In this document: positions 20,501 through 41,185 of the stretch, piece after piece
Layout: the number at the start of each line of letters is the position of its first letter
Numbering within the stretch: the first letter of the stretch is position 1
Virus record (IMG/VR): IMGVR_UViG_3300028833_000054
Coordinates: 182,482 to 246,481 of that record
Origin: a virus
Lineage: Duplodnaviria > Heunggongvirae > Uroviricota > Caudoviricetes
Direction: 5' to 3' (one strand)
DNA length: 64,000 nt
Program-made: the position numbers and the translations under genes
Notes under the pieces: generated by a model
The model's input: only the letters and a program-made list of their open reading frames with translations
What the model was told of the DNA's origin: nothing
Databases searched by the model: none

Positions 20501-23500
20501 AGTAAACTCTACTCTTGATAAGACATACACAGGATATTTTATGGTCCTCGAAAAGAATGGTATCAATGCTTATACGAGAGTTATTGAAGAAAGTGATTCT
20601 CCTGCTTTGCTTGCAATAAGTAATGATATTATAACAGATGAAGTATATTCTGCTGCATCTTATATGTCTGCATTGTATAGTGCTGATAGTAATTTAGATT
20701 ATACAGATGTAAATTTAATATTGTATAACAATCTTGGAAATTATCCTATAATGCAAACATATGCATCTATGGTTAATGCAAATGCTATTCCTTACAGTGA
20801 TATCATTGAAGGATATACAGATGGAAAATATCGTTTGCTTATAGGTGAATATTCAGAACGTTCTTATATCTGGGCTTCACTTCTTGAACATATTGAACAA
20901 GATATTCCAAAGATTATAAATCATTATATTGATGATGCATCAAGTGAGATGATTATTATTCCTGATGATTCATCTTTCAATGATGATGAAGAAGAGTCAC
21001 AAGAAGATGAAGTTGTAATAGAAGAACCAACAGAAGAAGATGTTATCAATGACTGGTATTATATAGAACCACAACCTAGTGATTTTCTTGATGTTGTAGT
21101 AGATTTTGTTGAAAATCTTAAAACTGTAAATATAACAGTTCCTGCAAGTAAAATAGAAGAAGAGGAATTAGAAAATACTCTTGCTGATTTCAAAGAATCA
21201 TTAGAGAATATAATTGATTCTTCTGCAGAATTATATACTTATGAAGATGAAACTTTGTTTGATACTTCAACAGAAGTAATTGATTATATCAAATCTAAAG
21301 TAAATGATTTGTATTATACTATAGGAGATGTTTCTTCTAATTTGTATGTAGATACTAAATCATGTGTATGTTTGAACAATTATGAAACATATGATGTATT
21401 GATGAATATCTATCTCAAAAATATTTTGATAAATGAAGATGATACTGATACTTATGGAATAAAATACATATTAGGAGAACATAATGATTTGTATTCTGGT
21501 ACAGTAGGAGAACAAATATATGCAAAATATAAAGAAGATACAAATCTTGCTATGATGATGTCAAATGCAAAGATAACAGATGATATAATAAAGCAAGTTT
21601 GTTCATCTATTACAAATGCATTAAAAGTCAGAGGAAACAATATAGCAGAAATGCATAGAACATTTATAGAAGATTTTTATTCTAATTATGGAAATATAAC
21701 ATCTGCTTTTACCTCTGCTGTTGAAGTAGAATATTATGAAGAAGATGAGCTTACATCAGCATATTCAATTCTTTTTGAATCTGGTACAAGTAAAAATGAG
21801 TTGAGAAGCTCTGCACAAAAGATAATACTTCATACATTGGAAAGATTAGAAACTTATCCAGATGAAGATATTATACAATTGCAGTCATTTATTCCTCAAT
21901 ATTCTAAAATCTTGTTTGCAATATGTGTTTACATAGCTGATTGTACATTCTACAATATGCAAGATATTGTCGACTACAAAGATACTGCACTTAATTGTCT
22001 TTATGCTGAATATTTAGGAACTTATAGAGATGATGTGATTGTATTGTCATATGAAAATACATTAAAGGTTGCAGGAGGATTATACAATACATTCTTTACA
22101 GATAACGGAAAATTAGATGTAAATTCTGCATTGATTGAAGAATATGATATGACTAATGCAAGTGAATTTAAATTGTATGAAAAAATATTGTATAATTTAA
22201 CATCTCTTACTGCTAAGTTCTTGTCTGATAAATGGGTAACAAAGAACAATCCTAAGAATGAGTATGATGTCCTATATGCAGTTGCAGGAATTATTGCAAG
22301 TGAAGAAGAGGAAGAAACAGAAAATTCTGAATCTAATGAGGAGGAAACCTTTGTAGACAATCCTACTCCTGTATCTGAAAACGAAGAAGAGTCTGAAGAT
22401 GAAGAGACAGCATCATTGTACTACGTAAAGCCAAAAGGAAATGTATATGAAGGTCTATTATATACAAATCCTGTAAATACTGTTACTGCTTCAGGAAGAC
22501 CTATCAGCAAGGTAAACAACAAAAATGTTCTTCCTGATATTACAGCATTAATTCAAAAGCCTTACGTATCAGTATATATTCAGCCTACATGGAAAGCACA
22601 AGTAAGTATATCATTGATAACTCCTGAAAATGCTATTAAACTTGGATTTATACAAAATGAAGATGAATATGAAGAGATTGAAAACAAATATCTTTGTATA
22701 ATGTATTCTAATTCAGATTTCATGTGGCACTTCAGAAAAGGTGAAATGATTAAACTTATATTTGAATCTTTGACAAACAAAGAATATATTGGTCAATCAT
22801 CTTATGAAGTTGTTGGATATGATACTGAAGAACAAGTTGTAATAGTTAAAGGTGCTATCAATGCTGCATATGCTAGAAAAGAGAAACGTGAAGTTTGGGC
22901 AGAATTGCTTATCGATGACCCTAAATTCCCCCAAGCAGATATTGATAAATTGAAGGAATTTGCTAATGCTACAAATGTAGATGAAAGAAAGGTAGAACCA
23001 TTGATAAGAACATATAGATATATGATAGGAAATGATTCTCCTGCAGAAACTACTTACCGCTTGCCTATTAAGAAGTTAAATGGTACTTGGTATTATAAAG
23101 TATTCTATTTCGTCAATGGTATTCCTAGACCAATTGAAACTGTTAAAATTGACCCTCAAGAAAAGGTTAATATGTATATAAGTTATGCTCACAATGCATT
23201 TGTTGATTATACTATGACTGCTAACAAGTCAAAAGAAAACAGTAATGGAACTACTGATTTGTCAATTGATTACAACATATTGAACTGCAGAAAAATGCAA
23301 TTTATAGATGATACCTTTGTAGTATATGCTAAAGAATTTGACATCAATGAAGGCCTTGCAGCATGGATGAACAGTACAGTTCTTGATGAGCAAACAGTAG
23401 GAGAAATCTCAAAGAAGACTATTTACAAATATCGCTCTGAGAACGGATTTGTTCCTATCAAGATTTCTCCAGATTCTCCAAATGTTGCATTTACAGTAAA

Positions 23501-23726
23501 CTTTGAAGATATGGGTATTGATTTTGAAGAATCATATGTACAGTGGAAAGTTTACAGAAAACTTCCAACTAATAATGAAAGAGAATACATGTTTGAGTCA
23601 TTCAATAAAGTATTGTATTTAGATTATGTAGAGCCAGGAATATATGATATTGAGGCAAATGTATTTGATAAATACGGAAACACAGCAACAAAAGTATTCA
23701 AAGGTGCATATAAAGTAACAATTTAA
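17547..23726 (+). CDS. Giant acidic protein (2059 aa), function unknown; possible virion-associated or host-interaction protein
   Basis: Uninterrupted 6.2-kb ORF. D/E/Y/N/I-rich, with poly-acidic tracts (EEEEETENSESNEEE, DDEEESQEDE). No polymerase-type DxDGD or other catalytic motif seen. Confidence 0.6.
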   Translation: MSQFNYTNLHFFDKHGIELPITYSSNYIAEIINESGDNAVFYGLKDCSTGEFEFIKKKAGNRFSDKSEEVCHLTVGNTTYETTATVVKEDTPAFIGGEQTTVKYVNEISDIVVSDDIQAKIDALPFPTITLSSSLSLPPVSVDLVETQSIYVLCEYNNAFAKLAEVTGEDIIDFKNHYKILFYLDNRSQKDFRFFSVDNSELKWSDRAILNFNKGDFKVNIGFCGAEEGIYEQIMYVCILKDYKESDPTSGEIYPIGSIKLEAEAIGEDERYRTLFSNFGIPDPIHYQEVFANTSLDEGKMDYMKLNENSKKLFLSYSEIFSYIGSYKALMNAVNVLGYHDIFFKEWYKETGKNIVSKGYVTYDMSYKSDANANIIDNIPIEERISLKKLNWLSMVYRINKELLDEAEDQWGFPQIIEIYDYNNEEIITKLYSLKKWLEKYIIGLNCKIIDVSGEGIYFERYKLDTYGMYQQVFDWNNSNNLIPTVVTSDENGPLDYYLIDSSAYLNVDIGLYNAATIEDYKNYTLEQFCDGYIGTDNIYHQRMPDDEEAASVYVGRTFECLNRFEDYELKATSYGEDFLFGKEYLAKDSAGIRIHDNEIYFNPFELLEKEQQAAFTLLPFIQLEKANIRKKETNWNNSVKYRINPELTDDSLESYTIKNLETGDTYSSTDYIMLIPPTYSEMDDVVTITSFSGTEIEKDVYYVPEFQEDDSSLSTIVKHNQTIRTYGLRYSAINKMNMPLFSIAGYEVDGKSDFIDLQEEYYIEILDGKMLFNDVEHDRKIFLNFNFDKETNEQEVKISIIYTSDNFKIESYEDEDYIPAFIPGNEYSTFVDNYENDIDNAIIYDNVHSIKVMNTGEFTIDVYAKDLQNNIFAKNCENTVNVYLPNFSISTYTNSSNSGEEHNSIAEYISEEERTFLRDNYTDFCIYNNAYMINGFVKTINDSNKELSIQYPSYSYSMHNPKGGDYLHFMNISDRYYTDAVEFEVNSTLDKTYTGYFMVLEKNGINAYTRVIEESDSPALLAISNDIITDEVYSAASYMSALYSADSNLDYTDVNLILYNNLGNYPIMQTYASMVNANAIPYSDIIEGYTDGKYRLLIGEYSERSYIWASLLEHIEQDIPKIINHYIDDASSEMIIIPDDSSFNDDEEESQEDEVVIEEPTEEDVINDWYYIEPQPSDFLDVVVDFVENLKTVNITVPASKIEEEELENTLADFKESLENIIDSSAELYTYEDETLFDTSTEVIDYIKSKVNDLYYTIGDVSSNLYVDTKSCVCLNNYETYDVLMNIYLKNILINEDDTDTYGIKYILGEHNDLYSGTVGEQIYAKYKEDTNLAMMMSNAKITDDIIKQVCSSITNALKVRGNNIAEMHRTFIEDFYSNYGNITSAFTSAVEVEYYEEDELTSAYSILFESGTSKNELRSSAQKIILHTLERLETYPDEDIIQLQSFIPQYSKILFAICVYIADCTFYNMQDIVDYKDTALNCLYAEYLGTYRDDVIVLSYENTLKVAGGLYNTFFTDNGKLDVNSALIEEYDMTNASEFKLYEKILYNLTSLTAKFLSDKWVTKNNPKNEYDVLYAVAGIIASEEEEETENSESNEEETFVDNPTPVSENEEESEDEETASLYYVKPKGNVYEGLLYTNPVNTVTASGRPISKVNNKNVLPDITALIQKPYVSVYIQPTWKAQVSISLITPENAIKLGFIQNEDEYEEIENKYLCIMYSNSDFMWHFRKGEMIKLIFESLTNKEYIGQSSYEVVGYDTEEQVVIVKGAINAAYARKEKREVWAELLIDDPKFPQADIDKLKEFANATNVDERKVEPLIRTYRYMIGNDSPAETTYRLPIKKLNGTWYYKVFYFVNGIPRPIETVKIDPQEKVNMYISYAHNAFVDYTMTANKSKENSNGTTDLSIDYNILNCRKMQFIDDTFVVYAKEFDINEGLAAWMNSTVLDEQTVGEISKKTIYKYRSENGFVPIKISPDSPNVAFTVNFEDMGIDFEESYVQWKVYRKLPTNNEREYMFESFNKVLYLDYVEPGIYDIEANVFDKYGNTATKVFKGAYKVTI

Positions 23727-29983: not shown

Positions 29984-30015
29984 TATGATATTATATCACA
30001 AGTAACAAATTAAGA

Positions 30016-30567
30016 TTACTTTTTAATCCAATATCCGTAAATTGAATAATTGCCGCAATCCCAAATATCATAATACTTGCCGTCCCTTGATGAGGAATAG
30101 TGTCCAGAGAGGCTCAATACTGCCGGATTAGTATTCTGTTTAGCAAACTCAGAAACCTTTGGACGCGTCATTCCTTTGCTTACCTTGACAGGAACCCAAA
30201 CAAATCCCTCATCAGTAAGATATTTGTCAACCACTTCACGTTCAGCTGGCATCAACTGCATCTTCCTTCCGATTTCACAGAGCTTATCATATACAGTATA
30301 CCAAGATTTTCCAAGAGCCTTTGCAACTGCTCTTACAGAACAGTCACCACAAACATGGTCATTAGGTTGAAAATACTCGAAATTGTCGTGATAAATTCTT
30401 ACTTTCTTTCTGCCGATTTTGATAATTTTCTGCAGAGTAATTGGTATAGAATATCCCATATTAAATATCATTAAATCCCATGCACTCTCTATTGAACTGT
30501 ATAATAGGATTATTTGTTGAAACATATCCTCTATAGATAGTATCTCTAATCTGTTCAATCGGATCAA
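30016..30567 (-). CDS. Hypothetical protein; possible papain-fold (C39-like) cysteine peptidase
   Basis: QPNDHVCGDCSVRAVAKALGKSW resembles the Q...DCGxA...G active-site region of C39-type peptidases, with a downstream His (SGHYS). Weak. Confidence 0.3.
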   Translation of the reverse strand: MIRLNRLEILSIEDMFQQIILLYSSIESAWDLMIFNMGYSIPITLQKIIKIGRKKVRIYHDNFEYFQPNDHVCGDCSVRAVAKALGKSWYTVYDKLCEIGRKMQLMPAEREVVDKYLTDEGFVWVPVKVSKGMTRPKVSEFAKQNTNPAVLSLSGHYSSSRDGKYYDIWDCGNYSIYGYWIKK

Positions 30568-31003
30568 AAATACATCTGCTCAATATATTGCACATTAAAA
30601 TATTTGAACTGTCTATAAGATTCTGGTCCTCAGGAAGATTGTATCGTCTTGCCTCGCTAAGCTCTGATACAAACATACCAGTTGCAAAAGCATTCAAATC
30701 ATACTTCTCTGCAAAGATATTGGCATTGCACCAGAAACAAATGCACTCCTTGTCTCTGAAGAACTGCAAATCTCTTGAAGTAACCAAATACCTCCAATCA
30801 TATCTCATATCAAGAAGACCGAGCTCAGTGCCGTGACCAAGAAATACAATTCTGTCATGGGTTCGAAGAGCATCTGTAAGTACATTCCTTGATATATGAT
30901 TTCCTGTAATAAGAGTAACATTGTCCCACCGCAAATAGTCCTGGTAAATTGCAGAACAAAATGCAGTAGAAGGGTCAGTTGGATGAATGAACAATGTTCT
31001 CAT
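30461..31003 (-). CDS. Hypothetical protein
   Basis: 180-aa ORF. Its 3' end overlaps the 30016-30567 ORF by 107 nt, so one of the two may use a later start. Confidence 0.35.
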   Translation of the reverse strand: MRTLFIHPTDPSTAFCSAIYQDYLRWDNVTLITGNHISRNVLTDALRTHDRIVFLGHGTELGLLDMRYDWRYLVTSRDLQFFRDKECICFWCNANIFAEKYDLNAFATGMFVSELSEARRYNLPEDQNLIDSSNILMCNILSRCIFDPIEQIRDTIYRGYVSTNNPIIQFNRECMGFNDI

Positions 31004-31054
31004 ATTATACTTTATTTAATACAAATATATGTACTTTTTTGTAAAAAAGAAAAT

Positions 31055-31074
31055 GGAGAGTATTTCTACTCTCC
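31055..31074 (-). terminator. Terminator-like hairpin
   Basis: ggagagta/tactctcc 8-bp stem with a 4-nt loop, flanked by an A7 run, downstream of the flotillin gene stop (31097). Confidence 0.45.
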
Positions 31075-31096
31075 ATCATATTGACAGGCAAGAGGT

Positions 31097-32881
31097 TTAG
31101 TCGTTGAGCGGCTGCTGCGGCTGTTCTTCAGCGGGCTGCTGTCCGTTCAGACCCTGGCCCATACCCGCACCGAGGGCGGCGCCAGCGAGAAGGCCGGCAG
31201 CATTCTTGAACCAGTTTCCACTCTGACCGGGGAGAGGAATGCTGTCCACAGCACCGATGGTAGGGGCGACAGTCTGAACCATGTTCTTCATGAAGTTGGC
31301 AGCGGTCTTACCATCTCCGGAGTCGTAGATGTTGATGTTGCCAAGGTTCATCTTCTCGAAGGCAGCGGCCTGAGCCTTAGCCATATCGGTGTAATTAATC
31401 TTTTCAACAATCTTGAACTGGATTGCAATTTCAGGGTGAGCCTCAGAGGCCTCAAGCATCTGCTTGTACGCTTCAGCTTCAGCGAGCAAGGACTGTTTCT
31501 TACCTTCAGCTTCAGCAAGCAACTTAGCCTGACTTGCCTTAGCCTCAGCCTCACCTCTCATGCGGGTAGCCTCAGCATCAGCCTTAGCTCTGGCAAGAGT
31601 AGCGGCAGAATAACCATCAGCTTCCTTCTTGAGCTTCTCCGCTTCAGCCTCAGCCTTAATGACGGTCTCCTTCTTGGCCATTTCAGCAGGAATAACCTTT
31701 TCCGCCTGGAGCTGCTGTTCAACCTTAGCAGCCTTGGCAGCTTCAACCTCACGTTCCTTTTCCTGACGCTTGATAGCAACCTGGGTCTCAGCATCAACCT
31801 GAGCTTCACCAGCAAGACGCTTAGCCTCTGCCTTCTTCACCTCAAGTTCAGCCTCAGACTGGGCAACTTCCTGCTTAGCAAGGTTAGTAGCAACCTGAGC
31901 CTTCTTGTCAGCATTGGCCTGACGGATGTCACGGTCAGCCTCAGCTTCAGCGACCTTTGCTTCCTTGTCAGCATTGGCCTTAGCCACATTGGTCTCCTTG
32001 TCAGCGTTGGCCTGAGCAACACTGGTCTCCTTCTCCGCGATAGCGCGAGCGACGTTGGTCTCCTTTTCAGCCTTAGCCTGCTCAACACCAGTGATACGTT
32101 CCTTTTCGGCCTGAGCAATAGCAAGGTCACGAGTCTTATTGGCATCAGCAACCTTAGACTTCTCTTCAGCATCTGCCTTAGCAATTGCAATCTCCTTCTC
32201 CTTGTTCTCACCAGCAATCCTGGACTTACCGAGTTTCTCCTGCTCAGCGATGCGGAACAGAGCTTCATTCTCCGTACGGGCAGCAGCTTCCTTACCCATA
32301 TTGACAATGATGTTGGCAGCATCCTGAATGTTGATGATGTTGATGTTCATCAGCTTCAGACCGTACTTCTTAAGTTCGTTGGTCACGTTCTCCGTAATCA
32401 TCTGCTGGAACTTCTCACGGTCAGTATTCATTTCAGAAATAGTCAACCGCGCGATGACGATACGCATCTGACCGTAAATAACCTCAGAGACAAGTTTTTC
32501 AATATCTCGCGGTTCCATTCCGAGCAAACGTTCTGCAGCAGTCTGCATCATAGCATCATCAGTATCAATTGCCACAGTAAGGTTGGTAGGAACATCAACA
32601 CGAATGTTCTCAGCAGAAAGAGCTCCCTTGAAATCAAGGTTCATCTGAATAGGCTGCAAGGACATAGTGGCATAACCCTGGACGATAGGCCACACAAAAG
32701 TACCCTTACCGTGAACAATCTTTGCAGAACGAATAGAACCTGCCTTTCCGGTCTTACCGTACTTGATAAGGATTTCATTAGGCTTACACTTCACATAATG
32801 TTTGATGACAACAAAGACGGAAGCGATGAGGACGGCGACGAGGACGCCAATCAAGATAGCAGCATTAACACTAATACTCAT
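31097..32881 (-). CDS. Flotillin-like SPFH/band-7 protein (YqiK/FloT-like) with long Ala/Glu/Lys coiled-coil and Gly-rich C-terminus
   Basis: N-terminal TM helix, SPFH domain (KPNEILIKYGKTGKAG...IVQGYATMSLQPIQ), then ~300 aa of AEAEA/KAEAE heptad-like repeats including five 12-aa KANADKETNVA repeats. Very high GC (about 55-60%) compared with the rest of the window. Confidence 0.75.
   Translation of the reverse strand: MSISVNAAILIGVLVAVLIASVFVVIKHYVKCKPNEILIKYGKTGKAGSIRSAKIVHGKGTFVWPIVQGYATMSLQPIQMNLDFKGALSAENIRVDVPTNLTVAIDTDDAMMQTAAERLLGMEPRDIEKLVSEVIYGQMRIVIARLTISEMNTDREKFQQMITENVTNELKKYGLKLMNINIINIQDAANIIVNMGKEAAARTENEALFRIAEQEKLGKSRIAGENKEKEIAIAKADAEEKSKVADANKTRDLAIAQAEKERITGVEQAKAEKETNVARAIAEKETSVAQANADKETNVAKANADKEAKVAEAEADRDIRQANADKKAQVATNLAKQEVAQSEAELEVKKAEAKRLAGEAQVDAETQVAIKRQEKEREVEAAKAAKVEQQLQAEKVIPAEMAKKETVIKAEAEAEKLKKEADGYSAATLARAKADAEATRMRGEAEAKASQAKLLAEAEGKKQSLLAEAEAYKQMLEASEAHPEIAIQFKIVEKINYTDMAKAQAAAFEKMNLGNINIYDSGDGKTAANFMKNMVQTVAPTIGAVDSIPLPGQSGNWFKNAAGLLAGAALGAGMGQGLNGQQPAEEQPQQPLND
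31890..32085 (-). repeat. Imperfect tandem DNA repeats (~36-39 bp unit, ~5 copies) encoding the KANADKETNVA coiled-coil repeats
   Basis: Recurring cttgtcagcattggcct / ggtctccttgtcagcgttggcctgagc units. Confidence 0.6.
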
Positions 32882-32917
32882 AATAAATTGTATTGTTAAA
32901 AATTAGTAAATAATTGA

Positions 32918-33544
32918 TTAAGCTTTGGAAGTACTTTCCGAGTCAGGAGTAGAACAAGGAGTACAGTAAATAGTAGTATTAACTTCAGATGTACTGTGAA
33001 CCCTTGAAATGTATGCATAGTCACCAGTCTTAAAATCGTCTGCAATATATCCGGTGTCAGGATGTGCAATAATTTCATTGATACGACCGTCCTGCTCAAT
33101 CTGCAGAATGACAATACCATTGCCTACAGTATACACCTGTCCATGCCGTCCAACAAGATCAGTCGGTTTTTCATGTACAATTGTTCCTTCAAGTTTCATA
33201 CATGCTCGGTAAGCAAGTAGCAGCAAGAAGAACATAACAATGCCGACAAAAACAGCAAGAACAGCATTCCAACCTTCAAGGCCAAACAACGCCCAAGAAC
33301 AAGAAAAACCTACACCAAAATTGATAAATCCCTTAAGAGAGAAAACATCAGATACTGAAAATCCGTATCCATCAACATTGGCATCAGCATCAGGAGTGCC
33401 ATCACCATCAAAATCAATGTCTCCATCGGCATCAACATCTCCGCCAGCAAGGGCAAGAATGACCTTAACGACAAAGAAAAGAAGGAAAAACAAAGCAACC
33501 CAACCACCAGTAGGATCTTTGATAATACTAATAAGAGGAATCAT
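32918..33544 (-). CDS. NfeD-like membrane protein (YqiJ-type partner of flotillin)
   Basis: Multi-TM N-terminal half plus C-terminal OB-fold beta-barrel (GRHGQVYTVGNGIVILQIEQDGRINEIIAHPD). Sits immediately upstream of the SPFH gene, as in bacterial nfeD-flotillin operons. Elevated GC. Confidence 0.6.
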   Translation of the reverse strand: MIPLISIIKDPTGGWVALFFLLFFVVKVILALAGGDVDADGDIDFDGDGTPDADANVDGYGFSVSDVFSLKGFINFGVGFSCSWALFGLEGWNAVLAVFVGIVMFFLLLLAYRACMKLEGTIVHEKPTDLVGRHGQVYTVGNGIVILQIEQDGRINEIIAHPDTGYIADDFKTGDYAYISRVHSTSEVNTTIYCTPCSTPDSESTSKA

Positions 33545-33607
33545 ATAATTATTACTTTAAAATTTACAATATAAATATATGTAATTTAGTTGATACTAAA
33601 AAATATT

Positions 33608-33811
33608 TTAGGAAATTATATTCTTATTATCATTTCCTTCTTTGAGTCCGTGTGCAAATCCATATTCATATACTTCATCAAGAACCTCAGTAATAGTTTT
33701 TGTTGAATACATTATATCTGAATATGCTTCTCTAATAATTTCTTTTTTTGTTTTCATTTTATGCTTCTGGAATTTCATCTGAAAATGGAGCAGGAGACGG
33801 TTTGATTGCAA
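33608..33811 (-). CDS. Hypothetical small protein
   Basis: 67-aa ORF. Confidence 0.3.
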   Translation of the reverse strand: MQSNRLLLHFQMKFQKHKMKTKKEIIREAYSDIMYSTKTITEVLDEVYEYGFAHGLKEGNDNKNIIS

Positions 33812-34064
33812 CTAAACCGCTATCTGCTTCAAGTTGATTTTTGTATTCTTTTGCTTTGTTCAAATACCAGTCTTCCTTCTTAAGGTCTTGTTCAATAGGA
33901 GTTTCTGGCTTCTCGCCAAGACGCAACCTATATTTAAATGCAGTCATTTCACACCAAAGAGCTGTTGCTGCAGTTCCAAAAACTCTTCTCAAAATCTCAA
34001 TTGCCTCAATATCATACTTGTTGTAATGAGACGGATGGTTCACCATTTCGTAATCTTTTGCCAT
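33759..34064 (-). CDS. Hypothetical protein
   Basis: 101-aa ORF. Overlaps the previous ORF by 53 nt. Confidence 0.35.
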   Translation of the reverse strand: MAKDYEMVNHPSHYNKYDIEAIEILRRVFGTAATALWCEMTAFKYRLRLGEKPETPIEQDLKKEDWYLNKAKEYKNQLEADSGLVAIKPSPAPFSDEIPEA

Positions 34065-34348
34065 ATTCTATAAAATATATTCTTTTTCTTTTTATTGATA
34101 TCTTTAATAATACTTCTTACTACTTCTCCGTAGCACTGACTAGGAGATAAAGGATCTGAGAAATAGAAATCATCGCCATAATATGCTTTAATCAGTTCTA
34201 CTGAAATTTTATTGTATATAGCCAATTGATTTCTATAAGCATGATATTCATATTCTTCTATAAGCATTAATTTGTCACCACGCTCTGCTTGCTCAAATTC
34301 TATATTATCAAACCACTTACCAAATATATCATAATCACCATCACCCAT
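34040..34348 (-). CDS. Hypothetical protein
   Basis: 102-aa ORF. Confidence 0.35.
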   Translation of the reverse strand: MGDGDYDIFGKWFDNIEFEQAERGDKLMLIEEYEYHAYRNQLAIYNKISVELIKAYYGDDFYFSDPLSPSQCYGEVVRSIIKDINKKKKNIFYRIWQKITKW

Positions 34349-34349
34349 A

Positions 34350-35153
34350 TCACTTAATCATATTGAGATATTCATCTTCAGTGAACTTAGAAATTCCTAA
34401 CTCATTGGCTTTCTTAATCTTAGCAGCACCTGCTTTGTCACCAACAATAAGAAATGTCAATCCTCTGGATATTCCAGATGCATATGTACCACCATTTGCA
34501 ATAACAGATTCTTTGATTTCATCTCTAGAGAAGTTCTTTAAAGTACCTGTTGCAAGAATAGTCATTCCGAACAATTTGTTACCAGTTGTCATAGGCTTAT
34601 CAAACTTTGTATTAAAATATTTGTAAACATTCTGAAGTTCTTCCTTTTCAGATGCCATGTAATTATGTACATTATTTCCTGCAACTTCACCAAGAACACC
34701 AACAACATCATCTAATGATGCCTTTTCTATTTCTTCAATAGAACCAAATCTCTCAAGAAGTTTCTTAGCATTTACTTTTCCAATACCTGCAATACCAAGA
34801 GACATCAAAACATTTTCTGCCTTTGCTTTGTTTCTTGAATTCATCAATTCATCAACAATATTTCTTGCAACAACTGGTCCACAACCTGCATGCTGCAATT
34901 GTTCTGCAGTAAGATTATATAAATCCCACCAGTTTCTGATATTAAGTGCAGGAACAATCTTTCGGAGAGTCTTTTCAGACAATCCATCAATATTCATACA
35001 CTCCTTAGTTACAAAATAATTTAATTTTGCAATTCTTCTTTCTTCACAATCAGGATTGCTACAATAAAGATGAGCACCATCTTCAAGGAGTCTTACTATC
35101 GGAGCTCCACAAAACGGACAAACAGTCGGTTCTTCAATTTTAATAGCTTTCAT
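34350..35153 (-). CDS. ligA: NAD-dependent DNA ligase, C-terminal fragment (Zn-finger, HhH and BRCT domains)
   Basis: CPFCGAPIVRLLEDGAHLYCSNPDC (Cys4 Zn finger), HhH region, and BRCT GMTILATGTLKNFSRDEIKESVIANGGTYASGISRGLTFLIVGDKAGAAKIKKANELGISKFTEDEYLNMI. The start codon overlaps the stop of the inserted GT2 gene (TAATG). Confidence 0.8.
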   Translation of the reverse strand: MKAIKIEEPTVCPFCGAPIVRLLEDGAHLYCSNPDCEERRIAKLNYFVTKECMNIDGLSEKTLRKIVPALNIRNWWDLYNLTAEQLQHAGCGPVVARNIVDELMNSRNKAKAENVLMSLGIAGIGKVNAKKLLERFGSIEEIEKASLDDVVGVLGEVAGNNVHNYMASEKEELQNVYKYFNTKFDKPMTTGNKLFGMTILATGTLKNFSRDEIKESVIANGGTYASGISRGLTFLIVGDKAGAAKIKKANELGISKFTEDEYLNMIK

Positions 35154-36406
35154 TAATTAGCAGGAGTATATATGTTACACAATGTTTTTAATTTTTCCTT
35201 TTCAAAAGGTTTACTCATATCAGTGCATTGATATTCTTCATTCCACAAAGGGTCATCAGAACCAAGTTCAAGAATTCTATTATGAATTTGTTCATCATAT
35301 TTTTTTCTCAAAAGAGAATTGGTTCTTTGTATTTCATCAAACCTATGTGATTGAGCAGTAGTTCCATCCCTTCTTGTTGTATTGTTTCCTTCATGTTGAA
35401 TATACAAAACTTTATCAACAATAGAAATTTTTCCATACAGAAATGTGCGAATCAACAAATCCATATCATCAAGAACTGATAACTCTATATTATGACCGCC
35501 AATCTTATGATAAAATTCTTTTTTCCAACATCTAACATGATTAGGAAGAGCATGAATTCCTCTGACAGAAACTGCATTAACAAGTGCAGTCAATGCAATA
35601 TTTCGTTCTTGGCCCATTACAAATACTTTTCTGTATTCGCCAAGACCATAAGCAAAATTCTCAGAATAATAAATTTCATGTCCATTTACTTCTTCCATTG
35701 CATGAGAATAAACAAAATCACTGTCAGGATATGCAGCAAAAGTATTATTCAGTTGTTCAAGACAATCTGGAAGAAGTTCATCATCATGGTCTACTTCAAC
35801 AAGATAATCTCCATCACAAGCAGAAGCAATCATATGCTTGTTGAAACCAATATTTCCATGATTAGTGATATTCTTGACTACTACAATTCTTGGGTCATGG
35901 AAATGTTCAATCATTTCAGAAGTAGCAGGAGAAGTACTATCATCAAGAATATACCAATTCCAATTGTGATAAGTTTGATTTAGCAAAGACTCATACAGTC
36001 TTACAAACATCTTTTTTGGAGTATTGAATGTACAAGTGAAAATTGAAAACAACTTTACTTCTTGTGGACGTTCTCTATTAATATTATTAAGAAATACTCC
36101 AATAATTGCTCTTGCTAAAGTATCAGGTTCAAAAGTATCTTTGTGAATCCATTTCTTTCTGAACTCAAATGACATTTCATTAAGAGGTTTGAAATCAATA
36201 TTTTCACCTACTGTAATAATACAATCAAATCCTTTTGCTTTATTGAGTTCAGACAAAAGATTGTTAGTATTTTTAACTATATGAAAATCAAACCCTTTCT
36301 CACCATAATACCACTTATACTCTGGGTCAGTTGAAGTAGTGACCAAAGAGTAATCATGTTCATCGGCGAGAGGGTCAATGATAAATGCTGAAATTCTATT
36401 CTTCAT
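35153..36406 (-). CDS. GT2-family (GT-A fold) glycosyltransferase inserted between the two halves of ligA
   Basis: FSIFTCTFNTPKKMFVRLYESLLNQTYHNWNWYILDDSTSPAT (classic GT2 N-terminus) and DxD motif VEVDHDDELLPD. Extra ~130-aa N-terminal domain of unknown function. Both ends overlap the ligA fragments by 1 nt. Confidence 0.7.
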   Translation of the reverse strand: MKNRISAFIIDPLADEHDYSLVTTSTDPEYKWYYGEKGFDFHIVKNTNNLLSELNKAKGFDCIITVGENIDFKPLNEMSFEFRKKWIHKDTFEPDTLARAIIGVFLNNINRERPQEVKLFSIFTCTFNTPKKMFVRLYESLLNQTYHNWNWYILDDSTSPATSEMIEHFHDPRIVVVKNITNHGNIGFNKHMIASACDGDYLVEVDHDDELLPDCLEQLNNTFAAYPDSDFVYSHAMEEVNGHEIYYSENFAYGLGEYRKVFVMGQERNIALTALVNAVSVRGIHALPNHVRCWKKEFYHKIGGHNIELSVLDDMDLLIRTFLYGKISIVDKVLYIQHEGNNTTRRDGTTAQSHRFDEIQRTNSLLRKKYDEQIHNRILELGSDDPLWNEEYQCTDMSKPFEKEKLKTLCNIYTPAN

Positions 36407-37680
36407 TATTCTAATTCTATATTTTCAGTAAGGCAGCGTTCATAGTCAACTCCAGTGACTTTCGGAATGACAGCTCCTCCTTTCTCTACAAAGACGTAAG
36501 CACCTATCTGTAGATTCAATTGATTGATATAATCAATGTTGTTCAAAGAGGCTTTAGATACAGTAGAACCGTCAATCTCAACAGGTTCAAGGATTCCTAC
36601 TGGAGTAAGCTTGCCAGTTCTACCCATCTGCCACTCAACACTAAGAAGCTTAGTAGAAGCAGATTCTTGTTTGAACTTGAAAGCCTTGGCCCATTTAGGT
36701 ACCTTCTGTGTATAACCCATCTGAAGTTGTTTCTCAATTGAGTCAAATTTGATCACACAACCGTCCATGCAGTAATCCTGCTTCTTCAAAAATCTATCTT
36801 CAAATTCTTTGATGAATGTAAGAACAGTATGTTGGTCAAGCGCAAGCCAATAATTAGGTGCATTGAAACCAAAAATATTTGCTACGGTAAGAGCCTTTGC
36901 TTGGCTGTCAAGATAAAGTTTATTGAATAAATCGTCATCATCAACAAATACTGCAAACGGCATAAACAAAAGCTTACGACTAGCTGTAACTTTCGGGTCA
37001 AGTTGTTTAATAGAGCCGGCAGCACAATTTCTCTCATTCGCAAACAAAGGAAGACCTTGCTCTTCACGTTCTTTATTGATTCTTTTGAATTCTGCTTTTG
37101 ACATCAGAATCTCACCGCGGATTTCAACATACTTAGGAACATAAATCTCCCAAAAATGATAGTCATTGACTACATCTGGATATATCATTCCATTTTCGTT
37201 TTTGTTTCCGTTAATTTTTAACTTCAAAGGAATAGACCTGATAGTCTTTACATTCTCAAGAATATTGTCACCTTTAAGACCAGAACCTCTAGTAGAAGCA
37301 GAAACAAGAACACCATCAACATAGATAAGAGAACAAGAAACTCCATCATATTTAGGCTCAACTATCCATGTATTGTATCCGTCATCTACAGATTCCATCC
37401 AAGACTTAAGCTCTTCCATATCATAGCAATTTGCAATAGAGCCCATGATACGTTTTCTTTCAACCGTAGTGAAGCCATCTTGCAAATCAGAACCTACACG
37501 TTGAGTCGGAGAATAAGGAAGAATGTAACCAGTCTCAGCCTCGAGTTCTTCCAACTGTTTCATTTTCATATCAAACATATAGTCTGACATGGTAGGTTCA
37601 CACTTTACATAATAATCATAATTTGCCTGGTTGAGTTCTTCAACAAGGTCTTCAATCAAACCATTTTTACTAATATCCAT
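36406..37680 (-). CDS. ligA: NAD-dependent DNA ligase, N-terminal fragment (Ia, adenylation/NTase and OB domains)
   Basis: SPTQRVG, adenylation motif EPKYDGVSCSLIY (KxDG), TRGSG, NERNCAAGS, AFKFK, MGRTGKLTPVGILEPV, collinear with E. coli LigA residues 1-~405. Ends exactly at the OB/Zn-finger boundary. Confidence 0.8.
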   Translation of the reverse strand: MDISKNGLIEDLVEELNQANYDYYVKCEPTMSDYMFDMKMKQLEELEAETGYILPYSPTQRVGSDLQDGFTTVERKRIMGSIANCYDMEELKSWMESVDDGYNTWIVEPKYDGVSCSLIYVDGVLVSASTRGSGLKGDNILENVKTIRSIPLKLKINGNKNENGMIYPDVVNDYHFWEIYVPKYVEIRGEILMSKAEFKRINKEREEQGLPLFANERNCAAGSIKQLDPKVTASRKLLFMPFAVFVDDDDLFNKLYLDSQAKALTVANIFGFNAPNYWLALDQHTVLTFIKEFEDRFLKKQDYCMDGCVIKFDSIEKQLQMGYTQKVPKWAKAFKFKQESASTKLLSVEWQMGRTGKLTPVGILEPVEIDGSTVSKASLNNIDYINQLNLQIGAYVFVEKGGAVIPKVTGVDYERCLTENIELE

Positions 37681-37710: not shown

Positions 37711-38454
37711 TTATTTTACAAAAGTTCCGTCTTTGACAATCCAGCCACCTTCATCTTCAAACATCTCATAAAGGTCTTTCTTTGTATTCCAGTCTTCTGC
37801 CGTTTTCAGATATTCAGGAATTTTGTCGCAACATTCAAACACATTGAAACGATAATCTTTTGTCTTAATTACATAAGCATTCTTGACAGTTTTCTGAAGA
37901 GACTCATCTTCACAATATTTCTTAAATTCCTGTTCAATTGTATCATATTTGTCGAGTCTCGTCTTAAAACAAACATGATTTCCACCGTAATCTTCAATAA
38001 AGAAAATATAATGGTCTACAGTAGCAGAAACATTTTCATCAAGTTTAAGTTTATCTTTGAATACATCTGAAATCTTCAAATCAAATCCTTTTCTTTCAAG
38101 AATAACATTGATAGTATTCATCTTAGACATAAATACTCTATCATGTGCAATCTCGTGTGAACATCTTTTATAGCGTTCTTCAGAAACATGAGAGTCTTGC
38201 CACAAATGAATCATCTCATGAATAAGAATTTCCTGAATCTGTCGCTCAGTAAATACAAAATACCTGCAGAAAGCAATATCATGAATATTACCGTTCTTCG
38301 TTGGCTTATCACGATGACGAGAAAATCCTGCAGCATAAGCAAGACGATGAAGCATGAAATTTATTTTGTTTGCTCTTGGAAGAGAATTATTAAAGAGCAA
38401 AGCATTAAATAATTCATAATTTGATTTGATATTTTCAAGGTCTTTCTTATTCAT
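37711..38454 (-). CDS. HExxH zinc-metallopeptidase-like protein (SprT/WLM-like)
   Basis: ILIHEMIHLWQDSH ... CSHEIAH motif arrangement. 247 aa. Confidence 0.4.
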   Translation of the reverse strand: MNKKDLENIKSNYELFNALLFNNSLPRANKINFMLHRLAYAAGFSRHRDKPTKNGNIHDIAFCRYFVFTERQIQEILIHEMIHLWQDSHVSEERYKRCSHEIAHDRVFMSKMNTINVILERKGFDLKISDVFKDKLKLDENVSATVDHYIFFIEDYGGNHVCFKTRLDKYDTIEQEFKKYCEDESLQKTVKNAYVIKTKDYRFNVFECCDKIPEYLKTAEDWNTKKDLYEMFEDEGGWIVKDGTFVK

Positions 38455-39109
38455 AATTGTAAATATACTTAAATTTTGTTAAATCTATTTGTACATGATA
38501 TTCTTTTTCCTTTGTGGTACTAAACACTTCAGAAGAAACCAATACTGTGTCTTTACCAGAATAAACTAAAAATTTATTAGCATCAGAAATATATTGATAG
38601 TAAGAACAATAATCTTTAACAAATGGAAGAAAATAATCTCTCCATCTTTCAAGAAGTTCATCTGCTGCGCTTCTTGATATTTCTGCAAAAACTTTTTGAA
38701 AATTAGAAGAGATATATATTTTTTCTAAAAATACAAATGGATATACGGGATTAAAAATAAAACTATTGAAATCTTTTAAATTTCTCATATATGTCGGACT
38801 GGGTGCATACGGATATATCAAGCTTTTTTGAAATTTTACTGCGTATGATGGATTTTTACTAGCATAATCTTGTTGCAGTGTCATTGGCTTTCTTTCATAA
38901 ATACCAAATTCACCATAAGCAAAACCTTGTCCTTGTGTTCTAAGTATATTTTTTATATAATCATAATATTCTTCCTTTGTATAAATAACAGTATTGTTTG
39001 AAGAAAATCTCTTACCTAAGAAAATATCTTCAAACAATATCTTATCTTCTTCAGAAGCAATATTTTCAATATAATTTTTAAATATATCTACTAAATTCAG
39101 TACTTCCAT
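38447..39109 (-). CDS. Hypothetical protein
   Basis: 220-aa ORF. Confidence 0.4.
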   Translation of the reverse strand: MEVLNLVDIFKNYIENIASEEDKILFEDIFLGKRFSSNNTVIYTKEEYYDYIKNILRTQGQGFAYGEFGIYERKPMTLQQDYASKNPSYAVKFQKSLIYPYAPSPTYMRNLKDFNSFIFNPVYPFVFLEKIYISSNFQKVFAEISRSAADELLERWRDYFLPFVKDYCSYYQYISDANKFLVYSGKDTVLVSSEVFSTTKEKEYHVQIDLTKFKYIYNYE

Positions 39110-39200
39110 ATACTTTTGGTTTAAACAAATATATGAAAAATCTCAGACAATAAAAAATTTTATTGCCTGAGAACAAAGAATATATAGAGATAGAAACCTT

Positions 39201-39440
39201 TTACTTAGTGGAATTTTTACCACCTATGGTAGTTGTTTGCCACTCGCCTTCCAATCCCTTAGTCGTATACCCTGGTACAAATCCCGGGAAAGCTGTACCA
39301 CGAGTAGTTACTTTACCCATGTGCGCGTTATCAAGTGCCTTCCGCATACCGGCATATGATGCTGGATGATCAGATAAATTACCTTGAGGAATCAGACGTG
39401 GTGCGCCAACATCTACAGGTTTCATGTGTTCATTACTCAT
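39201..39440 (-). CDS. Hypothetical small protein in a GC-rich patch
   Basis: 79-aa ORF. A plus-strand 68-aa ORF (39163-39369) overlaps it. The coding strand is uncertain. Confidence 0.25.
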   Translation of the reverse strand: MSNEHMKPVDVGAPRLIPQGNLSDHPASYAGMRKALDNAHMGKVTTRGTAFPGFVPGYTTKGLEGEWQTTTIGGKNSTK

Positions 39441-39491
39441 AATATTATATACATAACTTTTTATATTTATTACAAAAATAAAAATAAAAGT

Positions 39492-40112
39492 TTATCGTCT
39501 TCCTCCACGGTGTTGATTTCCATTAGGTCTGTGATTTTCACTAGGTCTTGAACCAGGTTGTGGCTTTGGTGGAGGTGGTGTAGGACGATACCTTGGAAGA
39601 GGCATTGGTCTTGGACGATAATATAGTCTTGTATGATTATATGGAATAATTGTTCTTTCATAATAAAAATCATAAATTCTTCTATAAAGAACATGATTTC
39701 TAATTACTCCTGTATCTTTATCAACATACTTGTAAATACCTGTAATATCAATTACACCATTTAAATACATTTGATATAACTCAGGAAAATGATTCTTCAA
39801 TACTTCCATCATTTCAGAATGATTTCTGTAATAGTACTTCATAAAATGATACTTGACTTTGTAATCAACTGTACCATCTTCAAGTACAACTTCTTTCATT
39901 GAGTCAACATCCAAAACTCCTTCCATATAATATGTATAAAGTTGAGGATAATGATTTGCAAGAACATAAGAAATCTCGTCCATCTCTTTGACTCTTCTTT
40001 GATTTGCATAAGATGCTGTTGCACAAGATATGAAAATCATTGATGAAATCAATACGAGTAATAAACTAAATTTTTTCATAGTTAACGATCTTTGTAATTT
40101 TTCTCTAGCCAA
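39492..40112 (-). CDS. Secreted/lipoprotein with two ~45-aa internal repeats and a Pro-rich basic C-terminal tail
   Basis: Signal peptide MKKFSLLLVLISSMIFISCATA (the likely start is the internal Met at ~40079). Repeats LKNHFPELYQMY / LANHYPQLYTYYM. C-terminal PRPMPLPRYRPTPPPPKPQPGSRP. Confidence 0.45.
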   Translation of the reverse strand: MAREKLQRSLTMKKFSLLLVLISSMIFISCATASYANQRRVKEMDEISYVLANHYPQLYTYYMEGVLDVDSMKEVVLEDGTVDYKVKYHFMKYYYRNHSEMMEVLKNHFPELYQMYLNGVIDITGIYKYVDKDTGVIRNHVLYRRIYDFYYERTIIPYNHTRLYYRPRPMPLPRYRPTPPPPKPQPGSRPSENHRPNGNQHRGGRR

Positions 40113-41185
40113 GTTTGATATGTTCCAGAAATAACATTGTTCAACCAGTCTTCATTGTCTAAATACCATTTGACAGTTTTTTCAATTCCGGTGTCAAATG
40201 TTTCTTCTGGCTTCCAACCAAGTTCATTCTGCAATTTACTTGAGTCAATAGCATATCTCAAATCATGGCCTTTTCTATCTGTTACAAATTGTATGCTAGA
40301 CTCATAAGTTCTAACCCACAACGGCTCAGGATTTGTAATATATTTTTTATTGCTTCTAAGTTGTTTTTCATGTGCAAATACTTTAATAATCTTCTTGATT
40401 ATATCAATATTGCTCATTTCGTGGTTTCCTCCAACATTGTAAGTTTCACCAGACTTTCCATTGTGAAAAATAACATCAATTGCTGCTGCATGGTCTTCAA
40501 CATATAACCAATCTCTTACATTTTCACCTGTTCCATAAACTGGTATTTCTTCATGATTCTTCAACTTGTTTATTACAAGCGGAATAAGTTTTTCTGGAAA
40601 TTGATTTGGTCCGTAATTGTTACTGCAATTGCTAATTGTAACATTCAATCCATAAGTATCATGATAAGCTTTTACAATATGGTCTGAACTTGCTTTACTT
40701 GCAGAATACGGAGAATGAGGATTATATGGAGTAGTTTCAGTAAACTTATTCTCTGGATTCATATCAAGTGCACCATAAACTTCATCAGTTGAAACATGAT
40801 GAAATCTATGAATTGCAAGATTATCTTTCCACTTGTTAAGTGCAACTTCTAACAATCTGTATGTTCCAACAATATTAGTATTGATAAACTCACCCGGGTC
40901 AAGAATACTTCTGTCAACGTGACTTTCTGCAGCAAGATTGATTATATCCGTAACATTGTATAAATCAAATGCGTTTTCAACATCTGCTTTATTTGCAATA
41001 TCACCACAGAAAAACTTGTAATTCTTACTTTCTTCAATATCTTTCAAGTTTTCAAGGTTTCCCGCATAAGTAAGTTTGTCAAAATTAATAATCAAATAAT
41101 TAGGATAGTTTTTAACGAATCTCCTAACAACGTGACTACCGATGAAGCCTGCTCCACCGGTAATCATTATAACTTTCTCAAACAT
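40082..41185 (-). CDS. rmlB: dTDP-glucose 4,6-dehydratase
   Basis: ITGGAGFIGSHVVRRFVKNYPNYLIINFDKLTYAGNLENL N-terminus. SDR YxxxK (YSASKASSDH). Full-length colinearity with RfbB. Confidence 0.85.
   Translation of the reverse strand: MFEKVIMITGGAGFIGSHVVRRFVKNYPNYLIINFDKLTYAGNLENLKDIEESKNYKFFCGDIANKADVENAFDLYNVTDIINLAAESHVDRSILDPGEFINTNIVGTYRLLEVALNKWKDNLAIHRFHHVSTDEVYGALDMNPENKFTETTPYNPHSPYSASKASSDHIVKAYHDTYGLNVTISNCSNNYGPNQFPEKLIPLVINKLKNHEEIPVYGTGENVRDWLYVEDHAAAIDVIFHNGKSGETYNVGGNHEMSNIDIIKKIIKVFAHEKQLRSNKKYITNPEPLWVRTYESSIQFVTDRKGHDLRYAIDSSKLQNELGWKPEETFDTGIEKTVKWYLDNEDWLNNVISGTYQTWLEKNYKDR

Follow-up and report, generated by a model that had tools for sequence, protein, structure and literature searches.

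A Flotillin Operon with a Short NfeD-like Partner in a Large AT-Rich Tailed Phage: Probable Long-Term Inheritance and Codon Selection

Introduction

In the Bacillus subtilis pair YuaF (NfeD2)-FloT and in the Escherichia coli pair YqiJ-YqiK a short NfeD protein that lacks the protease domain is encoded just upstream of a flotillin of ∼500 amino acids (aa). Here we describe a gene pair of this type in a 64,000-nucleotide (nt) stretch of DNA from a tailed virus (Caudoviricetes; IMG/VR record IMGVR_UViG_3300028833_000054, positions 182,482 to 246,481), referred to throughout as the window, in which the gene of a 594-aa flotillin-type protein of the SPFH/Band 7 superfamily is preceded by that of a 208-aa NfeD-like membrane partner. 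The likeness to the YuaF-FloT and YqiJ-YqiK pairs lies in the short upstream NfeD and in a flotillin with an N-terminal anchor and a coiled coil rich in Glu and Ala. Those pairs are chromosomal, however, whereas the present one is carried by a phage, its flotillin falls below the cutoff of the FloT equivalog model and its partner has no sequence-level match to NfeD.

NfeD is the first gene of flotillin operons, and binding of its domain resembling the oligonucleotide/oligosaccharide-binding (OB) fold to the flotillin coiled coil stabilizes flotillin oligomers (PMC11222466). The Staphylococcus aureus protein joins a membrane part to a five-stranded OB-like barrel in the cytosol, which binds the flotillin coiled coil; the NfeD-flotillin complex stabilizes unfolded membrane proteins without ATP (PMC11222466). 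The S. aureus NfeD-FloA pair, our proposed working model, shares its gene order with the pair in the window, which is known from its genes, whereas for NfeD-FloA interaction and client stabilization have been shown; FloA is also a shorter paralogue than the window flotillin, being detected at 37 kDa (PMC11222466). The function of bacterial flotillins and of their NfeD partners is still debated.

Eukaryotic flotillins are anchored by lipidation and a hairpin and not by a transmembrane (TM) helix. Flotillin-1/2 (9bq2, 9l3g) are nevertheless the best solved relatives of the window flotillin by sequence and by fold, with an SPFH domain followed by a long coiled coil as in the phage protein; they differ in forming hetero-oligomers and in having no NfeD partner (PMC11222466). 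The eukaryotic assembly is a 44-mer dome that encloses a 30-nm patch of membrane (PMC13000311). The HflK/C-FtsH and QmcA-YbbJ cages of E. coli (7wi3, 9cz2, 8z5g) share the SPFH fold and the cage-forming logic, QmcA-YbbJ being a solved SPFH-NfeD pair. HflK/C and QmcA belong to different SPFH subfamilies, and they match the model of the window flotillin more weakly (E 1e-8 to 1e-6 versus 1e-13). HflK/C, in addition, faces the periplasm.

An operon with the same gene order and orientation occurs in Bacteroidales, for example in Parabacteroides (locus L006, 4487-4981 and 5001-6629). The Bacteroidales flotillin aligns end to end with that of the window over residues 9-550 at 46-49% identity, and the partner, at 25-34% identity, has the same layout of TM helix, acidic loop, two TM helices and small barrel. 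Relative to these proteins the window flotillin has an added Gly/Ala C-terminal helix and extra 11-residue repeats, and the window partner is ∼40 residues longer, with a bigger acidic loop and a C-terminal tail. Among phages, csAssE-Sib (OR575929) and similar ∼150-kb gut phages encode a flotillin, annotated in GenBank as 'flotillin family protein', with a homologous upstream membrane partner and, as here, among replication genes; Vibrio phage KIT04 also carries a flotillin. Phage-borne flotillins and this type of partner are therefore already annotated in public records of other phages, and the pair described here is a divergent, phage-adapted member. In the literature we found no study of a phage-encoded flotillin and nothing on csAssE-Sib.

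Results and Discussion

The Gene Pair

The picture that emerges from our analysis, and that we regard as probable when taken as a whole, is of an old phage operon inherited vertically, with a flotillin gene under selection for codon usage and with products that would act as a membrane scaffold. The genes and elements concerned are listed below in the direction of transcription, together with the predicted local distance difference test score (pLDDT) of models where it applies and with genes taken from a listing of open reading frames (ORFs).

33568-33583, minus strand: promoter-like motif TACATATATTTATATT with a TAnnTTTG-like core, 23 nt upstream of the partner ATG
32918-33544, minus strand: gene of the short NfeD-like membrane partner, 208 aa (ORF listing)
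33191-33514, minus strand: membrane region of the partner, helices at residues 11-32, 70-87 and 93-118 (hydrophobicity scan and model)
33362-33445, minus strand: acidic loop of the partner, residues 34-61, predicted to be disordered (pLDDT 31-36)
32954-33145, minus strand: predicted C-terminal five-stranded beta-barrel (OB-like) of the partner, residues 134-197
32882-32917, minus strand: spacer between the partner and flotillin genes, 36 nt, AT-rich
31097-32881, minus strand: flotillin-type SPFH gene, 594 aa (ORF listing)
32798-32878, minus strand: N-terminal membrane helix of the flotillin, residues 2-28 (model helix; Kyte-Doolittle maximum 3.24 over residues 1-32)
32234-32788, minus strand: SPFH/Band 7 domain of the flotillin, residues 32-216 (Pfam limits; alpha/beta elements in the model)
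31439-32320, minus strand: Ala/Glu/Lys-rich helical (coiled-coil) region of the flotillin, residues 188-481 (low-confidence model helices 188-286, 294-423 and 426-481)
31962-32087, minus strand: tandem 11-residue (33-nt) repeat array in the flotillin coiled coil (Tandem Repeats Finder: period 33, 3.8 copies, 75% matches)
31157-31222, minus strand: C-terminal hydrophobic Gly/Ala helix NAAGLLAGAALGAGMG of the flotillin, about residues 554-575, followed by a Gln/Pro/Glu tail
31042-31077, minus strand: intrinsic-terminator-like hairpin of 11 pairs with a GAAA loop and a T-run, 20 nt after the flotillin stop

Both minus-strand genes, that of the 594-aa SPFH protein and that of the partner upstream of it, lie at exactly the coordinates given in a first-pass annotation made from the letters of the DNA. 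The claim of that annotation that a phage carries a bacterial-type NfeD-flotillin gene pair is upheld by a Band_7 match, by the flotillin relatives, by the fold and operon position of the partner and by the phage genes on either side.

The flotillin matches Pfam Band_7 (PF01145) over residues 32-216 with 91.1 bits against a cutoff of 23.6 (E 1.2e-25), which places it in the SPFH/Band 7 superfamily. Its sole NCBIfam match, FloT (NF058507), scores 151.9 bits and so remains under the equivalog cutoff of 700, and the Flot C-terminal domain model PF15975, annotated on many bacterial homologues, is below threshold at 16.7 bits (cutoff 27). Since both of these scores are below cutoff we regard the protein as a divergent member of the flotillin family and not as a FloT orthologue. 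All of the sequence matches in the PDB are to flotillin-1/2, with E about 1e-17. The monomer model is poor (pLDDT 56) and was used solely for secondary structure and for ranking SPFH subfamilies; Foldseek with this low-confidence model places the flotillin complexes 9l3g and 9bq2 at the top (E about 1e-13), with prohibitin, HflK/C and stomatin ranking below them (E 1e-9 or weaker) and erlin likewise behind. The protein is thus nearer to flotillins than to stomatin, prohibitin, HflK/C or erlin, and it has the flotillin arrangement of anchor, SPFH domain and Glu/Ala-rich coiled coil.

The N-terminal TM helix, the long coiled coil of AEAEA type and the Gly-rich tail that had been noticed at first reading are confirmed by hydrophobicity, composition and the model. 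Positive residues at or just after the N-terminal helix (K27, H28, K31 and K33) would, by the positive-inside rule, leave the bulk of the flotillin in the cytoplasm. Residues 216-500 are 24% Ala, 16% Glu and 14% Lys. Five tandem KANADKETNVA repeats had been counted within this region; the tandem 33-nt unit is real, but the array amounts at the protein level to ∼3 good 11-residue copies with 2 or 3 degenerate ones. The copy number differs among relatives, and those of 571-576 aa lack 33 residues at the array. Toward the C-terminus a hydrophobic peak at residues 560-578 overlaps a model helix at 554-571 of low pLDDT. All 8 phage-clade sequences have the Gly/Ala helix, the bacterial, csAssE-Sib and KIT04 homologues lack it, and a C-terminal LND is conserved and specific to this clade. 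In known SPFH cages the C-terminal region lies at the apex.

Opposite the flotillin gene, in the codon-aligned antisense frame, runs a 487-aa Leu/Ser-rich ORF (31436-32899, plus strand). It stays open because the flotillin uses no TTA, CTA or TCA, the complements of which are stop codons, and is almost certainly no real gene but an artefact.

For the partner, no significant match was found in Pfam, NCBIfam, PHROGs or PADLOC, and against NfeD (PF01957) there was none even with the E limit relaxed to 10. When 21 homologous C-terminal domains were scanned, 3 of them matched PF01957 below threshold (best E 0.01), and no other family was matched by more than one. PDB profile searches with the full-length partner and with C-terminal-domain alignments matched no NfeD chain, and the matches that they did return, potassium channels via TM segments and designed 'Bagel' beta-propellers via a beta-hairpin motif, were rejected as spurious. 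A model built on 28 homologues comprises a TM helix with the disordered acidic loop, two more TM helices and a five-stranded barrel, for which ten-residue block means of pLDDT are mostly 83-90. In a fold search the best matches of the barrel are all four solved NfeD domains, with the YuaF soluble domain 2k14 in the top four, and the partner also matches a viral NfeD-like protein in BFVD. It further aligns over its whole core with a 164-aa ORF directly upstream of a Parabacteroides flotillin gene (26% identity, E 9e-16).

The partner accordingly shows what is expected of the NfeD type, that is a five-stranded OB-like barrel, an N-terminal membrane part and a co-oriented position directly upstream of an SPFH gene, and its 208 aa, in which neither Pfam nor the model shows a ClpP-type serine protease domain, make it one of the short NfeD proteins. 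The NfeD-like assignment made at first reading therefore stands on modelled fold and operon position and not on membership in a sequence model, as no Pfam, NCBIfam or PHROG model matches. The acidic loop contains 11 Asp/Glu and zero Lys/Arg, includes the DxDxDG-type motifs DVDADG and DIDFDG, is longer than in the bacterial and csAssE-Sib homologues and may possibly bind cations.

Relatives and Age of the Operon

In a search of 5.8 billion protein clusters the flotillin has relatives at 75-96% identity in 57 clusters, whose proteins are without exception unnamed and metagenomic; below these, identity falls to 49% or less and the named matches are flotillins of Prevotella, Parabacteroides and Leyella. 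The partner has only 34 relatives in the same collection. Bacterial genomes were searched as 185,579 species representatives, with figures that refer to the best 80 loci, 78 of which were examined for the upstream ORF. All 80 are from Bacteroidales, with flotillins 46-49% identical to that of the window. The Bacteroidales flotillins compared are ∼85-94% identical to one another, and in a neighbor-joining tree the window clade falls outside this group, at the end of a long branch. An ORF of ∼165 aa is found just upstream of the flotillin in 74 of the 78 loci.

In IMG/VR a flotillin relative is encoded at 173 loci, and the following figures are from the best 80 of these (79 checked for the upstream ORF). 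Nearly all of the 80 belong to ∼150-kb csAssE-Sib-like gut phages, and the upstream partner ORF is present in 79 of 79 viral loci, 78 of them csAssE-Sib-like. Flotillins of the csAssE-Sib clade are 68% identical to those of Bacteroidales and 45% to that of the window, and they have neither the anomalous GC content at third codon positions (GC3) nor the C-terminal hydrophobic extension of the window flotillin. In the neighbor-joining flotillin tree the csAssE-Sib clade groups with Bacteroidales; in the partner tree the two phage clades fall together on long branches. The csAssE-Sib flotillin may be a separate acquisition. One further viral record of 25 kb (L010, IMGVR_UViG_3300045988_141550) encodes a flotillin 93-94% identical to Bacteroides and Phocaeicola proteins, and is probably a prophage-flanking or misclassified bacterial fragment in which the flotillin is not a phage gene.

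Contigs related to the window came from pig gut (up to 69.5 kb), from other metagenomes and, in one case, from IMG/VR; they were retrieved through these two proteins, so that relatives lacking the pair could not appear. Homologous phages carry the pair, which occupies the same syntenic position in L003-L005, L169, L171 and L172, with a partial copy on L008. The order that is kept runs from a BRCT/HHH ligase part through a small ORF, a DUF3310 gene and the partner to the flotillin, followed, where the contig extends that far, by a variable slot and then a helicase. L169, which was assembled independently, matches the window at 96.7% DNA identity over 5,329 nt, a stretch that takes in both junctions of the pair. 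Proteins of the neighborhood are 42-83% identical between the window and L003, with the flotillin at the top (83%) and the partner near the bottom (53%). Synonymous divergence (dS) to the relatives is ∼0.7-1.8, with 0.68 to L171 and 1.0-1.8 to L003 and L172. By these comparisons the flotillin is the most conserved protein of its neighborhood and the partner is among the fastest evolving.

Pfam and PHROG scans found no flanking mobility gene at the locus. Taken together, the best explanation of the comparisons is that the pair is an old conserved operon, which would have derived from the NfeD-flotillin operon found in almost all of the Bacteroidales sampled, entered before the phage lineage diversified and been inherited with the phage thereafter.

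The slot just downstream of the flotillin terminator varies, with HAD_SAK_2 in L003 and a 142-aa ORF in L169. Positions 30426-31007 form a 580-nt indel relative to L169, which holds an ORF (30461-31003, 180 aa) with no family match.

Transcription Unit

Partner and flotillin genes are co-oriented on the minus strand with a gap of 36 nt, in which neither a Shine-Dalgarno-like purine run nor a terminator-like site was found. The 16-nt sequence TACATATATTTRTATT occurs in two exact copies in the 64 kb (0.72 expected), the second at 31018-31033 on the minus strand, between the terminator and the gene that follows. In L169 and L171 the motif likewise stands before the partner, and in L003 and L171 before other genes; in its recurrent form, (T)ACATATATTTG/A-TATT, it is found 15-25 nt upstream of start codons in the window (31018-31033 and 33568-33583) and in L003, L169, L171 and L172. 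Its core resembles TAnnTTTG, which we take to be the Bacteroidota -7 promoter consensus, and the motif looks like a putative Bacteroidota-type -7 promoter element used by this phage group. The two copies were also considered as 16-nt direct repeats left as insertion scars on either side of the pair. This was rejected, and the repeats are read as promoter elements, because the motif stands 15-25 nt ahead of the start codons of other genes in the relatives. The terminator hairpin has an identical sequence at the same place in L171, and in L003 a hairpin of different sequence has the same 11-pair shape. Judged from these elements the locus is a self-contained two-gene operon, with promoter-like motif, partner, flotillin and predicted intrinsic terminator.

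Composition and Codon Usage

The window is 33.1% GC over its 64,000 nt, against 50.3% for the flotillin gene (GC at first and second codon positions 0.61 and 0.37, GC3 0.529) and 40.5% for the partner gene (GC3 0.273). The pair had been put by eye at 55-60% GC, nearly double its surroundings, and both figures were overestimates: in 200-nt windows the flotillin ranges over 43-55% GC, with a single peak of 61.5% at 31100-31299 that corresponds to the Gly/Ala tail. What survives is a smaller compositional difference with a GC3 anomaly in the flotillin only. The other 64 ORFs of the window (≥80 aa) have GC3 of 0.11-0.37; the flotillin alone lies outside this range and the partner is ordinary. Recoding the flotillin with the codon usage of the window gives 38.6% GC and GC3 0.22, so that ∼1/3 of the GC excess stems from amino-acid composition and ∼2/3 from synonymous codon choice.

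The choice is a specific one. The flotillin is almost devoid of A-ending codons and prefers T-ending and C-ending codons alike: AAA makes up 7% of its Lys codons against 60% in the window background, CAA 0 of 35 Gln codons against 67%, AGA 10% of Arg codons against 73% and GCA 10% of Ala codons against 58%, and ATA, TTA, TCA, ACA, GTA and CCA, with backgrounds of 20-46%, are not used. The favored codons are AAG, CAG, CGT, GGT, GCT and NNC. The frequency of A at third positions (A3) is 0.09 in the flotillin, 0.16 in the partner and 0.20-0.49 in the remaining ORFs. On a codon index referenced to the flotillin the partner ranks 3rd of 66 ORFs, and after it come an unknown 213-aa protein, an unknown 294-aa protein, an S1-domain protein and NrdD. 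The link from codon bias to expression is indirect, since the genes most similar on the index are the S1-domain protein and two unknowns and no major capsid gene was recognized in the window. No tRNA genes were found in the 64 kb, and thus none to account for the bias. The S1-like protein (11145-12206, minus strand, 353 aa; Pfam S1 E 4e-8, PDB ribosomal protein bS1 E 1.5e-6) is itself phage-encoded and ranks among the most codon-biased genes of the window.

In 4 of 4 relatives the flotillin is again the most biased gene, with GC3 of 0.52, 0.54, 0.39 and 0.25 against 0.11-0.32 for other genes, and the bias is kept in every one of them despite near-saturated synonymous divergence. The relative synonymous codon usage (RSCU) of the flotillin has a correlation of only r 0.18 with its own phage background and of r 0.25-0.44 with every sampled Bacteroidales group average. 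A simply Prevotella-like usage, suggested by the shared preferences for AAG and CAG, was dropped in view of an overall RSCU correlation of 0.25. The shift of flotillin codons relative to background does correlate (r 0.68) with the flotillin-versus-flank shift in 78 Bacteroidales loci, a value inflated because codons of one family are not independent and because any GC-ward shift adds to it. Nonsynonymous divergence (dN, Nei-Gojobori) is 0.11-0.17 for the flotillin, the lowest of five genes compared, and 0.29-0.47 for the partner. The dS of the flotillin (0.68-1.8) lies below that of its neighbors when the window, or the near-identical L169, is compared with L171 and L003. Low dN together with low dS is the pattern expected of a constrained, codon-selected gene.

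The best reading of the GC-richness is thus an Ala/Glu/Gly-rich protein combined with selected codon usage, and not a scar of transfer. The codon bias favors long-term selection, most simply for high expression or efficient translation, and it is the codon pattern taken with the depth of the lineage that makes codon selection preferable to a recent or fading transfer.

Proposed Mechanism and Role

By analogy with the described systems, the flotillin would be anchored via its N-terminal helix with its bulk in the cytoplasm. Oligomerization, mediated by its SPFH domain and long coiled coil, would yield a dome or clamp enclosing a patch of the inner membrane. The cytoplasmic OB-like barrel of the partner would bind the coiled coil and stabilize the oligomer, and during infection this phage-made scaffold might stabilize or organize the host membrane and its proteins until lysis. 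A scaffold is needed in many copies, and very efficient translation would therefore be expected. Adaptation of the assembly to the phage, and perhaps its separation from the host flotillin, is suggested by the Gly-rich C-terminal helix peculiar to the clade and by the larger acidic loop of the partner.

What such a scaffold would be for is a matter of speculation, as are the membrane remodelling, exclusion and counter-defence proposed at first reading, although these fit the data. Membrane stabilization until lysis, phage exclusion, protection from membrane-acting defence and control of a protease are all compatible with the data, which do not tell them apart. That it serves mainly against other phages or host defences and not for general membrane stabilization, through superinfection exclusion at the membrane, through shielding from abortive-infection effectors or through modulation of an FtsH-like protease in the manner of HflK/C, strikes us as doubtful, though as the most serious of the competing ideas. 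It has in its favor that the pair is accessory and adjoins a variable slot (the indel at 30426-31007, other genes in L003 and L169), that the flotillin carries clade-specific terminal additions, that the membrane partner evolves fast, as expected in conflict, and that SPFH cages enclose FtsH (7wi3 and 9cz2 are among the fold matches). On the other hand, no PADLOC defence model matches the flotillin, the partner or their neighbors, purifying selection on the flotillin is strong and no client protein gene is consistently linked to the pair.

Alternative Histories

The composition of the flotillin might also be a fading relic, left by an ancient acquisition followed by slow neutral decay with no selection on codons or expression. 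The graded GC3 of the flotillins (0.54, 0.53, 0.52, 0.39 and 0.25), with which partner A3 moves in step (0.15, 0.16, 0.15, 0.25 and 0.33), is what such decay would produce, and by a rough calculation the dS of 0.68 between the window and L171 still permits a Prevotella-like ancestor with GC3 ∼0.7. At dS of 1.0-1.8 (L003, L172) and with >50% protein divergence from any bacterium, however, decay to GC3 ∼0.2 should be finished. Nor is the bias a plain GC signal, as it removes A-ending codons and favors T- and C-ending ones, and other phage genes lean the same way, as do bacterial flotillin genes when compared with their flanks. We therefore think a neutral relic unlikely, and somewhat more so than a role in conflict.

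Recent horizontal capture from a GC-richer host or mobile element, with a composition not yet adjusted, is what had been argued at first reading, and it has in its favor a flotillin GC3 of 0.53 far outside the range of the window and nearest bacterial relatives in Bacteroidales with GC3 of 0.44-0.67, Prevotella also favoring AAG and CAG. The argument does not hold up. The best bacterial identity is only 46-49% in a family that is ∼85-94% conserved within Bacteroidales, with no plausible recent donor among the 185,579 species representatives, and the pair is syntenic in phages diverged to dS ∼0.7-1.8. The GC3 of the partner is native to the phage, so that the insert as a whole is not atypical, and the flotillin RSCU is weakly correlated with every Bacteroidales group (0.25-0.44) and matches none. 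There is no flanking mobility gene, and the sole flanking repeat is the promoter-like motif that also stands ahead of other genes. We judge recent capture to be highly improbable.

An assembly chimera, in which a bacterial fragment would have been joined into a phage contig, could explain the abrupt GC steps near 31.05 kb and 32.9 kb, but its likelihood is negligible given the 96.7% identity over 5,329 nt that the separately assembled L169 shows across both junctions, and given the same gene order in pig-gut contigs of up to 69.5 kb and in the IMG/VR contig.

Several points weigh against the reading that we prefer, an old phage operon with a codon-selected flotillin and a scaffold function. 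No NfeD sequence model is significant on the partner, the flotillin model is of low confidence (pLDDT 56) and the promoter motif is a consensus-style match only. High expression is deduced from codon usage, and the correlation with bacterial flotillin loci is, as noted, inflated. The variation of bias strength among relatives (GC3 0.54 to 0.25) could represent stages of decay from a GC-rich ancestor, and the lower dS and higher identity of the flotillin could in part reflect gene exchange between related phages. The biological role in infection, finally, is wholly inferred.

Genomic Context and Host

The genes around the pair are those of a phage, including a portal, a baseplate wedge protein, a tail-fibre chaperone domain, NrdD, a RecA-like protein and thymidylate synthase. 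The closest phage relatives of the portal (42766-44577, minus strand) are the Prevotella Lak megaphages (∼540-550 kb), at 45% identity over 72% of the protein, and the window may derive from a Lak-related large phage. Within its large, AT-rich tailed phage, distant kin of these megaphages, the flotillin operon sits in the region for replication and nucleotide metabolism. Portal kinship, the ties of the operon to Bacteroidales, its promoter-like motif and the fact that several related contigs are from pig gut together make Prevotella or another member of Bacteroidales the likely host. A megablast search of window positions 30000-35000 against 50,697 phage records gave zero matches.

The 66 ORFs of the window end in TAA (53), TGA (11) and TAG (2) and are intact under the standard code. 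Lak phages recode TAG, and the scarcity of TAG stops in the window is noteworthy in this light.

Shortly upstream of the partner lies a gene for a DUF3310 protein (33759-34064, minus strand; PHROG 'nucleotide kinase' families), and DUF3310 or a homologue is found at this place in all relatives examined. The next gene (34040-34348, minus strand, 102 aa) has a weak, sub-threshold Pfam match to Tad8, an inhibitor of type II Thoeris (E 0.002; 18 bits against a cutoff of 27). An NAD-dependent DNA ligase appears to be split over two genes (34350-35153 and 36406-37680, minus strand), one with the adenylation and OB parts (by the L003 homologue) and the other with the zinc-finger, HHH and BRCT parts, a layout that is kept in relatives; between them sits a GT2 glycosyltransferase gene (35153-36406). 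A cluster of sugar-nucleotide genes (38447-42107, minus strand) encodes an RmlD-type reductase and an epimerase/dehydratase, the GT2 gene lying further along, and together they suggest that the phage modifies a rhamnose-containing glycan. On the opposite strand, 17547-23726 (plus) encodes a 2,059-aa protein with no PHROG match that is 25-30% identical to a 1,925-aa counterpart in L003, far more diverged than its neighbors.

Concluding Remarks

Strong purifying selection on the flotillin, the most extreme codon adaptation in 64 kb and persistence through deep phage divergence imply that the pair gives a concrete benefit in infection, since a phage that retains such genes bears the cost of their upkeep. 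A wider proposal, which we offer as speculation and consider unlikely, is that several abundant gut phage lineages (the Lak-related clade, the ∼150-kb csAssE-Sib-like phages and at least one T5-like Vibrio phage) build their own very highly expressed flotillin/NfeD cage on the host inner membrane, a virus-made compartment apart from the host flotillin, which could protect or reorganize the membrane against abortive-infection effectors or premature lysis. In the present clade the cage would have a glycine-zipper-like helix at the expected apex and possibly a cation-binding acidic loop on the partner. If true, phage SPFH scaffolds would be host-takeover devices of a new class, and they would give simple access to the question, long debated, of what bacterial flotillins do. 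For genome scans the locus carries a caution, that a sharp GC step in a phage can result from protein composition and selected codons and does not necessarily indicate recent transfer. The 173 IMG/VR loci, which include a common group of ∼150-kb human-gut phages, form an unexploited natural experiment on membrane scaffolding in infection.

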